Source of the DNA: Promethearchaeota archaeon
GTDB taxonomy: Archaea; Asgardarchaeota; Lokiarchaeia; Sigyniarchaeales; SOKP01
Assembly: GCA_048938025.1 (NCBI GenBank)
Contig: JBHLMP010000026.1
Location: forward strand, 18,600 to 55,010
Direction of reading: 5' to 3'
DNA length: 36,411 nucleotides
The position numbers were made by a program, and so were the translations under genes. Below the pieces are notes generated by a model. It worked only from the letters and a program-made list of their open reading frames with translations. It did no database searches and had not been told where the DNA came from. How positions within the stretch are numbered: the stretch's first letter is position 1; every line of letters begins with the position of its first letter. Shown one piece after another: positions 12,615 to 25,086 of this stretch.

Positions 12615-12679
12615 CCGAACCCTTTGCAAGGCTAGTCCTTTTGCGACTATAATTTTCTCACAAAAGTCATTCTATTCGG
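12615..12679 (-). promoter_or_regulatory. Eukaryote-like (Lokiarchaeota-type) SECIS element
   Basis: RNA reads CCGAA-UAG-AAU-GA-CUUUUGUGA-GAAAAUUAUAG-UCGCAAAAG-GA-CUA-GCCUUGCAAAGGG-UUCGG: AUGA/GA tandem core, 9-bp upper stem, A-rich loop, directly after two UGA-containing genes. Confidence 0.9.
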
Positions 12680-13151
12680 TTTTTTTCTTCTTTTGGTCAT
12701 TAGAATCCTTATTTTTTTCTATTAATAAAGATTCTTTTATAGGGTTGCTGCCTAAATTTTCAATGATCTCTGAAATTCTAATCATTTCTTCTTGAAATCT
12801 CTGACCTTCTGCAGAGCTACAATGAAGCATTTGGACTCTATCTGGTGAAATTCCAGTAGTTTTCAAGATATCTTTAACGTAATTTACATTTCTTTCTGCT
12901 ACAAGATTTCCAGTCTCATAATCACATTCTCCTTCATATCATCCAGCCACTATGATTCCATCTGCTCCTTTACCAATTGCTCGCATCATTAAACTAGGAG
13001 TTACTCGTCCTGTGCAATTAATTCTTACTGGTCTAATTGTAGAAGGGTATTGGGCTCGAATTGTCCCTGCCATATCAGCACCTCCGTACCCTCACTTCAA
13101 ACATAGAAAAGCTAATATTTTTCTATCTCTACTTTCTGTTATTTTTATCAC
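12672..13151 (-). CDS. mvhD: MvhD/VhuD [2Fe-2S] hydrogenase delta subunit, selenoprotein with 2 Sec
   Basis: Reading through TGA at 13092-13094 and 12939-12941 gives KILAFLCLK-U-GYGGAD...RINCTGRV...GADGIIVAG-U-YEGECDY..GN, matching the MvhD CxxC / C / GC...C motifs. 159 aa from GTG; the ORF track shows only the last 64 aa. Confidence 0.93.
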
Positions 13152-13155
13152 CTCT

Positions 13156-15138
13156 TTATAATTCCTCCAATATTGCATCAATTTGCTTTTCATATTGAGG
13201 TTCTCGATAATATCTTAAAGTTATTGCTTCCGAAGGGCAATTAGCTAAACAAGATCCGCAACCTCTGCATAATATCTCGTTTACTTCCGCTCCATCATCC
13301 ATTAACTGTATTGCGTCATAAGGACAATTTAACTCACACAGACCACACTTCGCGCATTTTTCTTTATCAACAGTAGCACGAATTAATTTAATCCTATAAA
13401 TTTCCTTACCCATTAATCTTGAGAGTGACGATGCCGCCGCTCTACCTTGAGCTATTGACTCAGCTATAGATTTTGGACCCTGAGAGGCTCCTGCAAGAAC
13501 AATACCTGGAATTTTTGTATCTATTGGATTTAATCTTGAATGGAACTCTTTGAAAAATCCATCTTGACTGGTTTCAAGTTTTAATATCTTCTGAATTTTA
13601 TCAATTCCTTTCGCGGGAACCATTGATGCTGATAAAACAACTAAATCATATTCGAATTCTTTTATTCCTAAAGATTCCCTAAGAGTATTTTGGATGATGA
13701 CTTTAATATTATGAGTTTTAGGATCTTCTTGTAACTTGGAAATATTAGTTCTGATGTATCGAATACCTTCTTTTCGCGATGCCGTAAAGTATTCCTCATA
13801 ATCTTTACCAGCAGCTCTTATATCCATATATGCTACATCAATCTGAGTATCAGGATAATGTTGTTTAATTAATTTCGAGTTTTTAATTGCGATCATACAG
13901 CAAACACCTGAACTACAATACGTATTTTTGTTTAAATCTCTTGAACCTACACATTGAATAAATAGAACTCTTTTTGGTATTTTACCGTCAGATGGTCTGA
14001 AAAGATGTCCAAGTGTGGGTCCGTTAGGAGCTAAAATTCTTTCTAGTTTCAATTCTGTAATTACATTTGGATATATATTATAGCCAAGATAGCCTGTTTC
14101 TGGTTCGTATTCATCCCACCCTGTTGCTACAAGAACCGATCCTACTTTTAAAGTAATAAGTTCATCTTGTTGATCAAAATTAATTGCATCTAATTCACAG
14201 GCTTTCTGGCATAATCCACATTTAATACATTGGTTCATATCTATTTGAGCTATAGAAGGGACTGCTTGAGCAAAAGAAACATAGATTGCTTTTCTTGGAT
14301 TCATACCTTCATTGAACTCATCATAACCATAAACAGGACAAGGATCTATACAAGCTCCACACCCATTACATTCGTTTGTAACATATCGTGCTCTTTTCCT
14401 GATTGTTACGTTAAAGTTTCCCACGAATCCAGATATTTCTTCCACCTCACTATAAGTATAAAGATTCACTCCAGTAGTTCTTGAAGCTTGAAGCATGACC
14501 GGCCCAAGAATTCATATACTGCAGTCATCTGTAGGAAATGTTCTATCTAGCATTGCCATTTTTCCGCCAATAGTAGGATTCTTCTCAACTAGATGGACTT
14601 CAAACCCTTGTTCTGCTAAATCAATACCAGCAGTTAATCCGGCGACACCCCCACCTATTATTAATGCTTTTTGAGTTATATCTACTTCTTTTACTAAAAT
14701 TTTCTCTAAAACAGCAGCTCTAGCGACTCCGGATCTAATAGCATCTTCTGCTACCTTTTGAGCACCAGGTTTATCATTTCGATGTACAAAACTAGCATGC
14801 TCTCTAATATTTACAAATTCTAAGTATGAAGGATCTAATCCCATCGACTCTAAAACGCTTTGAAACACAGGCTCATGAGTTATAGGGGTGCATGATGCTA
14901 CAATCAATCTATTTGCATTATTTTCAATCATATTTTCTTTTATAAATTCAGCTCCAGGCTCCGTACATAGACTAATATAATCAGAAGCTCCTACAACATT
15001 AGGTAATGTTTTTGAAAATTCAACTAAAGCTTTACAATCTATTATCTCTGCTATATTTATACCTCACTGACAGACAGCAACATAAATTTTCGGTATTTCT
15101 CCGATATCTTTAATTTCATCGTGTTTGGTTTCTACCAT
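13156..15138 (-). CDS. hdrA: Heterodisulfide reductase subunit A, selenoprotein with 2 Sec
   Basis: One frame from ATG 15138 through TGA 15064-15066 (VAVCQ-U-GINIA) and TGA 14512-14514 (FPTDDCSI-U-ILGP) to TAA 13156; 660 aa. FAD motif GGGVAG, FIQCVGSRD, four CxxCxxC...C ferredoxin motifs. Joins track ORFs 14512..14931 and 13156..14496. Confidence 0.96.
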
Positions 15139-15337
15139 TGCATATCATTCCATTATATAATTTTTGATTGTCCTCCAAATCTTCGAGTTTTTTTATAATT
15201 ATAAATCTAAATATTATATTTTAATTAAATAAATTTAAATCAAAAATGTTTCTTATATCTTTTATAATATAGTCAGTTAAAAATTATTTTAAAAATAAAC
15301 TTAAGACTTTAAAATTAAACTTAATTTCATTGGTAAA

Positions 15338-23658: not shown

Positions 23659-25086
23659 ATGCCAATTATTAGACCAAAAATTAATTTGTTAGATACTGAA
23701 CATAAGAAATCAATTTTTAATGAAGCTAAATCAATATTAGAGACTCAAGGAGTATTCGTTGAAAATCAAGAAGCAAAAGAGTTATTTAACCAGCATGAAA
23801 TTGATTTTAAAGGTTCACGTTATTTTATTCCACATGATTTAGTAGATAAATGTTTAGCCTCTGTACCTAGAGAAATAACTTTGTACGATAGAGAAGGAAA
23901 TGAGTATATTCATTTAAAGGATGATGAAGTTCATTTCAATCCTGGTTCTGCTGCGATATTTATTCTTGATGAAAATACTGGAATAATTAGAGAAGCTTTG
24001 TCTAAAGATTTTATTCGCTTTTCAAAAGTCGTTGAGCACTTAAAATTTATTGAAGCTCAAAGTACAGCTTTAATTTATAAAGATGTTCCTAATGTAGCTC
24101 AGGACTGGCATCGATTATATATAGCTTTATCTAATTGTTATAAACCGGTAGTAACCGGAACATTTCGTAAAGAAAGTTTTTCAATCATGCGGGAAATACT
24201 ATTAACTTGCAGGTTATCTGAAAATGATTTGGTAAAAAAACCACTAGCTATCTTTGACGCATGTCCAAGTCCTCCATTGAAGTGGTCTGATCTTACAACT
24301 CAATCTTTAATTGATGCGGCTAAAAGTATGATACCATCTGAATTTGTCTCAATGCCCTTAGCAGGTGCGAGCGCACCCATAACATTAATAGGATCTATTA
24401 CACAACATTGTGCGGAATGCTTGGCTGGAGTTGTAATTGCTCAATTAACAAAGTCTGGTGCACCCTTAGTATGGGGAGGTTCTCCGGCAGTATTTGATAT
24501 GAAACAAGGTACTACTCCCATGGGTGCAATAGAGACAATGATGATAAACATCGGAGATATTGAAATGGGAAAATTCTTGAATATGCCTACTCATGCATAT
24601 ATGAGTTTAAGTGATTCCAAAGTTCCAGATAGCCAAGCAGGTTTTGAAGCAGGAATAGGAGCTATTTTAGCAGCACTTGCTGGAAATAATATGGTTTCTG
24701 GTCCTGGGATGTTAGATTTTGAATCTACGCAAAGTATAGAAAAATTAATAATTGATAATGAAATTGTAGGAATGGTAAAACGATTTATCCAAGGGATAGA
24801 GGATTATGGTTCTCCTTTTGCATCTGAAATTATAAAAGATTATGAAGAAACTCAAGAACTATTATCTCATCCAACAACTTTAAAACATTTTAGAAAAGAA
24901 TTATTCATTCCAAGTCCTATTATTGATAGAACAACTCGTGATACTTGGAAAGCATTAGGATCTAAATCTGCAAGAAAAAGAGCTAGAGAAGAGGCTGCTA
25001 AATTAGTAAACAAAGCACCGATAAGGCCTATTGATGAATCTCTTAATAAAGATTTAGATAATATAGTGGAAAATGCATTAAAATAA
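23659..25086 (+). CDS. MttB-superfamily methylamine/betaine:corrinoid methyltransferase, non-pyrrolysine
   Basis: SPPLKW, MPLAGASAPITLIG, DSKVPDSQAGFE, GMLDFE...EKLIIDNEI; no in-frame TAG. Confidence 0.9.
   Translation: MPIIRPKINLLDTEHKKSIFNEAKSILETQGVFVENQEAKELFNQHEIDFKGSRYFIPHDLVDKCLASVPREITLYDREGNEYIHLKDDEVHFNPGSAAIFILDENTGIIREALSKDFIRFSKVVEHLKFIEAQSTALIYKDVPNVAQDWHRLYIALSNCYKPVVTGTFRKESFSIMREILLTCRLSENDLVKKPLAIFDACPSPPLKWSDLTTQSLIDAAKSMIPSEFVSMPLAGASAPITLIGSITQHCAECLAGVVIAQLTKSGAPLVWGGSPAVFDMKQGTTPMGAIETMMINIGDIEMGKFLNMPTHAYMSLSDSKVPDSQAGFEAGIGAILAALAGNNMVSGPGMLDFESTQSIEKLIIDNEIVGMVKRFIQGIEDYGSPFASEIIKDYEETQELLSHPTTLKHFRKELFIPSPIIDRTTRDTWKALGSKSARKRAREEAAKLVNKAPIRPIDESLNKDLDNIVENALK

Follow-up and report, generated by a model that had tools for sequence, protein, structure and literature searches.

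A predicted lokiSECIS element behind an Asgard hdrA-vhuD gene pair: kink-turn core and conserved three-way junction

The window analyzed here, i.e., the whole stretch of 36,411 nucleotides from a Promethearchaeota archaeon, contains on its minus strand, at 12679-12615, a SECIS-like element located at the 3' end of a vhuD-like gene. This element is very probably a lokiSECIS (Asgard eSECIS-like type I), acting as the 3' recoding signal of a bicistronic hdrA-vhuD mRNA and made of a kink-turn (K-turn) and a three-way junction. Since its core matches the lokiSECIS feature for feature, the finding is mostly already in print apart from the side hairpin. To our knowledge, the conserved three-way junction is an addition to the published lokiSECIS, the core being already described.

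The element lies behind two genes, both on the minus strand. The first one is hdrA-like (HdrA2-type; 15138-13156, 660 codons, stop UAA at 13158-13156) and matches NF040770 (HdrA2) with an E value of 2.6e-231. The second one is vhuD/mvhD-like (13151-12672, 159 codons, stop UAG at 12674-12672) and matches NF045873 (VhuD, named as the iron-sulfur subunit of an F420-non-reducing hydrogenase) with an E value of 3.2e-41. Both matches are below the curated cut-off of their family. The start of the vhuD-like gene is likely the GTG at 13151, and the hdrA-like frame ends four bases upstream of it. Each frame contains two UGA codons predicted to be read as selenocysteine (Sec): 15066-15064 and 14514-14512 in the hdrA-like gene, 13094-13092 and 12941-12939 in the vhuD-like gene. 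A third in-frame UGA is found on the same strand at 15147-15145. It precedes the Met at 15138, the likely hdrA start, in an open frame beginning at 15192, and probably lies 5' of the real start. A search of the hdrA-vhuD operon for a second SECIS element gave no further covariance-model match. One lokiSECIS would direct Sec insertion at the four UGAs, which are 271, 424, 1844 and 2396 nt upstream of it. Judging from the sequence, these four codons would encode Sec by means of the element.

The fold considered here was proposed in a first-pass annotation of the window, and all its pairings are present on the minus strand: a pair check over 12679-12615 gives 21 standard pairs out of 21, one of them being G-U. 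Read from the 5' side, the element starts with CCGAA (12679-12675), the 5' strand of the outer helix P1, still within the coding sequence. The UAG stop codon (12674-12672) is the 5' strand of P2, i.e., helix I or the C helix of the K-turn. It is followed at 12671-12667 by a 3-nt bulge, AAU (12671-12669), then GA (12668-12667); the AUGA core is thus at 12670-12667. The 5' strand of helix II (9 nt, 12666-12658) leads to an apical loop of 11 nt (12657-12647) that starts with GAAAA, with A at positions 2-5, and ends with AG; the 3' strand of helix II (9 nt) is at 12646-12638. Next comes the GA of the non-bulged strand (12637-12636), the presumed partner in tandem G.A/A.G pairs. The 3' strand of P2, CUA (12635-12633), is separated by a single G from the side hairpin P4 (CCUU-GCA-AAGG, 12631-12621), itself separated by a single G from UUCGG (12619-12615), the 3' strand of P1. 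At the sequence level the parts of a simple K-turn are found, i.e., a C helix (UAG/CUA), a bulge (AAU), GA plus GA and an NC helix (helix II), and a K-turn geometry is predicted for the element. Inspection by eye revealed no pairing of the P4 loop with the apical loop.

It had also been stated in the annotation that similar elements are described in Lokiarchaeota, and the published features are indeed matched. In the text of Mariotti 2016 (PMC4989117), the lokiSECIS is described with AUGA before a 9-bp stem and GA after it, and with an 11-nt loop in which the first five positions prefer A and the last position is an ultraconserved G, usually preceded by A. According to the same text, the element is close to the coding end and a single one downstream of vhuD serves hdrA-vhuD; a kink-turn is expected; the element may extend into the coding sequence, and the AUGA of VhuU.1 doubles as the UGA stop. 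In the window, AUGA is found 5' of the stem (12670-12667) and GA, one of the two forms GA/AA, 3' of it (12637-12636). The stem is of 9 bp and the loop of 11 nt, as in 115 of 135 relatives, the loop starts with A-rich GAAAA and its terminal G is preceded by A. The element is near or overlapping the stop of a UGA-containing gene, and only one is present after vhuD for both hdrA and vhuD. The account of Mariotti 2016, as given in its text, covers stem, loop and core; the outer helix, the side hairpin and the junction are added here.

The element also fits the eSECIS-like type I model reported for more than 400 Asgard genomes by Huang, Xiao and Zhang 2024 (PMC11227280), i.e., a GA_[G/A]A core, an upper stem of 7-15 bp and a loop of 8-20 nt; in the text of these authors UGA stops often overlap AUGA, and hdrA/frhD share one element. 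As described there, however, the lower stem is plain, with an internal loop, and no flanking nucleotides are conserved across families, whereas here the lower part branches into a junction whose side hairpin has a GC(A) loop. A description of such a junction is absent from the main texts of Mariotti 2016 and Huang 2024 and from literature searches on archaeal/Asgard SECIS; supplementary material (S4, Fig. S11, the SLoki construct) may bear on it.

The Rfam scan gave no match to the SECIS families, whether at the gathering score or at E <= 10; in the text of Mariotti 2016 (PMC4989117), older tools are likewise reported to give no match. The sole match of the window at gathering score is PYLIS_3 (mttB pyrrolysine insertion sequence), at 24609-24706 on the plus strand with 49.9 bits. 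This site is within an ORF (23659-25086, 475 codons) that has no in-frame UAG; if this ORF is a relative of MttB, the match may reflect coding similarity and not a recoding signal.

The comparison was extended to vhuD loci of other genomes. From species genomes, 250 stretches gave 122 relatives, and from metagenomes, 407 stretches gave 137 relatives, the best 80 being kept in each case. UGA is found at one or both Sec positions in the 160 best loci so kept, and at both in 158 of them. A strict pattern finds the element in 136 of the 160 loci; one of these hits (L145) is spurious, and the set without it (135 loci) is the one used for the counts per locus. Among the 24 loci missed, L088 is cut short and the others are, on inspection, variants: 1-nt bulge, two mismatches, UUGA or AGGA core. 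Six of the 24 are recovered by the model R1. At L047 (about 1930-2010) the vhuD element has a UUGA core, a variant absent from the texts of the published models.

The closest relatives (group A) were aligned with plain MAFFT. This alignment, A1, has 25 rows, of which one is the window, two are paralogs from the same genome and 22 are distinct close relatives. The U, G and A of the AUGA core are invariant (25 rows out of 25). Helix II is paired in 94.2% of the cells and 8 of its 9 pairs covary; P1 is paired in 88.8% of the cells, with 4 of 5 pairs changed on both sides. Taken as a whole, the proposed structure is paired in 88.4% of the cells (at most 50.2% when the partners are slid), 15 of its 21 pairs change on both sides, and its covariation score is 0.405 (at most 0.129 when slid). 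In alignment A3, which was fitted with the model and leans towards it, 87.9% of the cells are paired and 20 of the 21 pairs change on both sides. The four helices of a second group (group B, 85 rows) are paired in 97.5% of the cells versus at most 41.1% with slid partners. The covariation of helix II thus supports the claim of a eukaryote-type SECIS with an AUGA/GA kink-turn. A covariance analysis over mvhD/vhuD 3' ends had been suggested as a check, with lack of conservation of the GA core or lack of covariation as the refuting outcome; the GA core is conserved and helix II covaries.

The energy of the single sequence leads to a different fold. The 76-nt stretch folds better than 200 of 200 dinucleotide shuffles (z = -3.13), and its minimum free energy (MFE) fold is at -18.4 kcal/mol versus -14.4 kcal/mol for the proposed one, i.e., a difference of 4 kcal/mol. 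The MFE fold has the side-hairpin (P4) region base-paired with the 5' strand of helix II. The functional fold could then be the MFE fold, which hides the SECIS, or the RNA could switch between the two; besides the energy, the fact that the alternative helix is paired in 71.1% of the group A cells speaks for it. This is nevertheless very improbable. In the same alignment, the distinctive helix of the MFE fold has only 2 of 10 pairs changed on both sides, versus 8 of 9 for helix II, and the MFE fold as a whole (78.6% of the cells paired) has a covariation score of 0.208 versus 0.405. RNAalifold on A1 predicts P1, helix II and P4, and not the MFE fold. Moreover, as read from the alignment rows, L001, L010-L013 and group B have a changed helix II strand with no P4 complement seen. 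The single-sequence MFE fold was rejected on these comparative grounds, which alone decide for the proposed fold. P2 is absent both from the RNAalifold prediction on A1 and from the constrained MFE fold.

A covariance model built from A1 matches the 3.52-Mb genome at 8 places with an E value below 1e-4, 7 of them directly behind frames with in-frame UGA. Besides further vhuD paralogs, these frames comprise a vhuU-like gene, small unnamed proteins and an hdrA that no vhuD accompanies. An ordinary terminator, or a hairpin arisen by chance and without a recoding role, is hardly conceivable in this context: although the genome is AT-rich (29% GC) and a loose pattern scan gives 80 raw matches, many of them chance hairpins, the core nucleotides are invariant, helix II covaries and the model matches sit downstream of UGA-containing frames. 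The element is therefore still best read as a lokiSECIS.

Two of the eight places deserve a comment. The eighth one (C67:1470-1556, plus strand, 32.6 bits) is a SECIS-like copy in which helix II has two mismatches and UUUCGG lacks a 5' partner; it looks degenerate and may be decaying, or may be the element of a small frame in which one UGA lies 106 nt upstream. The element at C87:42182-42272 (plus strand) follows an hdrA of 690-odd codons without vhuD behind it, which has the same …ILPEIE tail as the vhuD paralog of C85; here the UGA of the core is the stop codon.

The first-pass annotation had also drawn a side hairpin and an outer helix forming a three-way junction, and the comparison adds support for this part of the proposal. 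When helix II and the K-turn are kept in place, a junction (an outer helix of at least 4 bp enclosing a 3' hairpin of at least 3 bp) is formed by 113 of 121 distinct elements, which are related sequences, versus 390 of 2420 flank-shuffled controls; L145 and two elements with too little flank were left out of this test. The junction is formed by 8 of the 8 elements of the own genome. The 113 junction elements have 49 different P1 strand pairs, e.g., CCGAA/UUCGG, AUGUGUU/AACACAU, CUCCC/GGGAG and GUAGGCUU/AAGCCUAC, and 37 different hairpin stems. The loop of the side hairpin holds GC in 107 of the 113 and the hairpin holds GCA in 93. The P1 helices differ widely even within the genome studied, where CUCCC/GGGAG, GUAGGCUU/AAGCCUAC and an 8-bp AUCCUGAA helix are found. 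Together with the RNAalifold prediction and the covariation, these counts indicate, at the level of sequence comparison, that both the side hairpin and the outer helix exist and have been conserved.

The two groups differ in the details of the junction. Group A, window included, has CCGA(A)/UCGG as P1, a short helix I and side-hairpin stems such as CCUU/AAGG, CCUAU/AUAGG and CUCUU/AAGAG round a GCA-containing loop. Group B (85 rows) has AUGUGUU/AACACAU as P1, a 2-bp helix I (CU/AG) and the hairpin AUGG-NNGCA-CCAU. L136, a contig of the original Lokiarchaeum assembly that was among those analyzed in Mariotti 2016, belongs to group B and shows the junction, with CC/GG as helix I. P1 and P4 vary little within each group; their support comes mostly from differences between groups and between paralogs, so that few independent events are involved. 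P2 is weak (2-3 bp): in group A its G-C pair is invariant (25 of 25 rows), and the remaining pairs hold in 16 of 20 and 19 of 25, so that two of the three are broken in 4-6 relatives. It must be added that at L002 (1960-2085) a vhuD 89% identical to that of the window keeps a group A remnant (CCGAA, UAG, AAUGA) followed by a complete group B element with its own P1 and hairpin; it looks as if one SECIS type had been replaced by the other through recombination.

P1 and P4 could also be no part of the SECIS at all and form a separate 3' element, e.g., a relic of the euryarchaeal type or a hairpin for stability or processing of the mRNA 3' end. The side hairpin of group B is flanked by GAA on its 5' side and by A on its 3' side, like the GAA_A loop of methanogens, and Huang 2024 (PMC11227280) reports euryarchaeal-like structures mostly downstream of eukaryote-like ones. 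Yet group A, including the window, has no GAA_A round P4, and P1 encloses the K-turn hairpin, so that the two cannot fold independently. In addition, the euryarchaeal-like structures are given in the text of Huang 2024 for 49 genes only (3.4%) and are judged there as probably non-functional, versus a junction in 113 of 121 elements here. A separate element is thus improbable, and P1 and P4 are treated below as parts of the lokiSECIS. As to the GAA/A flanks of group B themselves (e.g., L014:1975-2064), they could be left over from a SECIS of the euryarchaeal type or be due to chance.

In the region 12615-12679, the internal loop GAA_A of methanogen SECIS with its flanking G-C pairs is not found. 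The vhuD SECIS of Methanococcales and Methanopyrus, compared by its description in Mariotti 2016, has an AUGA with GAC/AAC on the opposite side and an extra stem, and belongs to the same gene family. However, that AUGA/GA is located at the base of a canonical GAA_A SECIS within one unbranched hairpin.

Among K-turn RNAs, a close motif is the k-junction of Wang, Daldrop, Huang and Lilley 2014 (PMC4005666), i.e., a K-turn made a three-way junction by a third helix in the non-bulged strand. There the third helix enters directly opposite the loop, whereas P4 branches off beneath P2, at a distance of 2-3 bp from the K-turn (in the window after the 3 bp of P2 and 1 nt; in group B after 2 bp and 2 nt). 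Because the insertion lies further down by these 2-3 bp, the element is a relative of the k-junction motif and not a member of it.

The comparison with the eukaryotic type I SECIS (Rfam SECIS_1) shows a common AUGA/GA quartet and an A-rich apical loop; the eukaryotic element acts from the 3' end at a distance, and the archaeal one would do so too. The archaeal one has a shorter helix II and no Rfam match, and part of it is coding; in place of helix I it has a helix of 2-3 bp that leads into the three-way junction. Moreover, it goes without SBP2 according to the texts of Mariotti 2016 and Huang 2024.

The stop codon requires a separate discussion, the element having been described in the annotation as built on it. 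The pairing UAG/CUA is real, but it is not a conserved design: relatives carry their stop at different places, namely helix I, the UGA of the core, the top of helix II or a site upstream. For the 135 loci, UAG is 1 nt before AUGA in 21, the stop is the UGA of the core in 1, it is 10-22 nt upstream in 110 and further in 3; in 133 of the 135 it is within 31 nt of AUGA. Four loci (L085, L090, L092 and L096) end their frame with a UAA three codons upstream and still keep the UAG of helix I. Three elements of the own genome use the UGA of the core as stop. Since the stop position differs between lineages, the stop is not a fixed building block, and what is conserved is the RNA fold; because the stop positions vary in this way, the frame can be said to end wherever a stop falls in or just before the conserved fold. 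Another arrangement is observed in two elements labelled as Helarchaeota (L067:1895-1983 and L154:995-1083), where the core is AGGA and the UAG occupies the top of helix II on its 5' side, so that the coding part of the element is about 25 nt long; the outer helix and the GCAA hairpin are kept.

The proximity of stop and core has a consequence for termination. The mRNA channel of the ribosome covers about a dozen bases 3' of the A site. Given this size, and by geometry, a ribosome with UAG in the A site would have to unfold P1, P2 and the K-turn as well as much of helix II (5' strand); in group B, a terminating ribosome would melt at least P1. It could be proposed from this that the stop inside helix I is a selected device, linking termination to recoding or to the resetting of the SECIS complex. 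The distance of at most 31 nt in 133 of 135 loci, the UAG placed 1 nt before AUGA in 21 of 135 and the three core-UGA stops of the own genome are in line with such a coupling. It is not favored by the variable place of the stop in the structure (helix I, core, top of helix II, upstream of P1), nor by the four loci that end at an earlier UAA while keeping UAG. A simpler explanation is available in the text of Mariotti 2016 (PMC4989117), i.e., a minimal-distance rule by which a nearby UGA is kept from recoding. Little credit can thus be given to a selected coupling; a conserved fold with a stop of variable position is preferred.

The Sec machinery of the genome was also considered. SepSecS is present (385.7 bits, C48:21260-22417). 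For tRNA-Sec, the Rfam model gives only sub-threshold matches; one of them (117 nt, 34.6 bits, C48:22637-22753, minus strand) is about 220 nt from SepSecS, and ARAGORN calls no tRNA-Sec in the genome or at this match. In the published Loki tRNA-Sec, the T loop is interrupted by an intron of 31 nt (Mariotti 2016, PMC4989117), and a similar intron could explain both the weak match and the ARAGORN miss.

As to the SECIS-binding factor, a protein of the L7Ae family had been suggested in the annotation for the role of SBP2. The genome contains two housekeeping genes of this family: L7Ae (TIGR03677, 99.6 bits, below cut-off with a short ORF call) and L30e (NF002172, 99.2 bits, above cut-off). No further L7Ae-family paralog that could stand in for SBP2 was found in the genome. 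In the text of Mariotti 2016 (PMC4989117), a search based on L7Ae likewise found no SBP2, and another protein or L30 is suggested in that role.

The proposed working of the element is as follows. The active part would be the K-turn, made of the 3-nt bulge and the tandem G.A/A.G pairs (AUGA and GA), which would carry helix II (9 bp) and its A-rich loop of 11 nt. On the other side of the K-turn, the short C helix UAG/CUA would open into the three-way junction, in which the non-bulged strand forms a hairpin with a GC(A) loop and CCGAA/UUCGG is the closing outer helix. The junction may stabilize the very short C helix or offer a second binding surface for the archaeal SECIS-binding factor. In a bolder form, the Asgard SECIS would be a composite three-way-junction RNA that is needed as such for function and docks the SECIS-binding factor or the ribosome, the hairpin of group B being a euryarchaeal remnant, so that two SECIS types would be literally fused; this is rather unlikely, though less so than the separate element or the selected coupling discussed above. 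A lokiarchaeal SECIS is reported as inactive in Methanococcus maripaludis in the text of Peiter and Rother 2025 (PMC11881835), which counts against the recoding role predicted for the element. If the composite junction were true, this failure of the bare lokiSECIS in Methanococcus might be explained.

The Asgard elements are taken as the link to the eukaryotic system. The core described here adds nothing to this view, being already published. The junction may be of more consequence: if it is needed for activity, reporter and binding assays restricted to stem, loop and core would leave out a part of the signal, and its inclusion could make covariance models for Asgard selenoprotein genes more specific.
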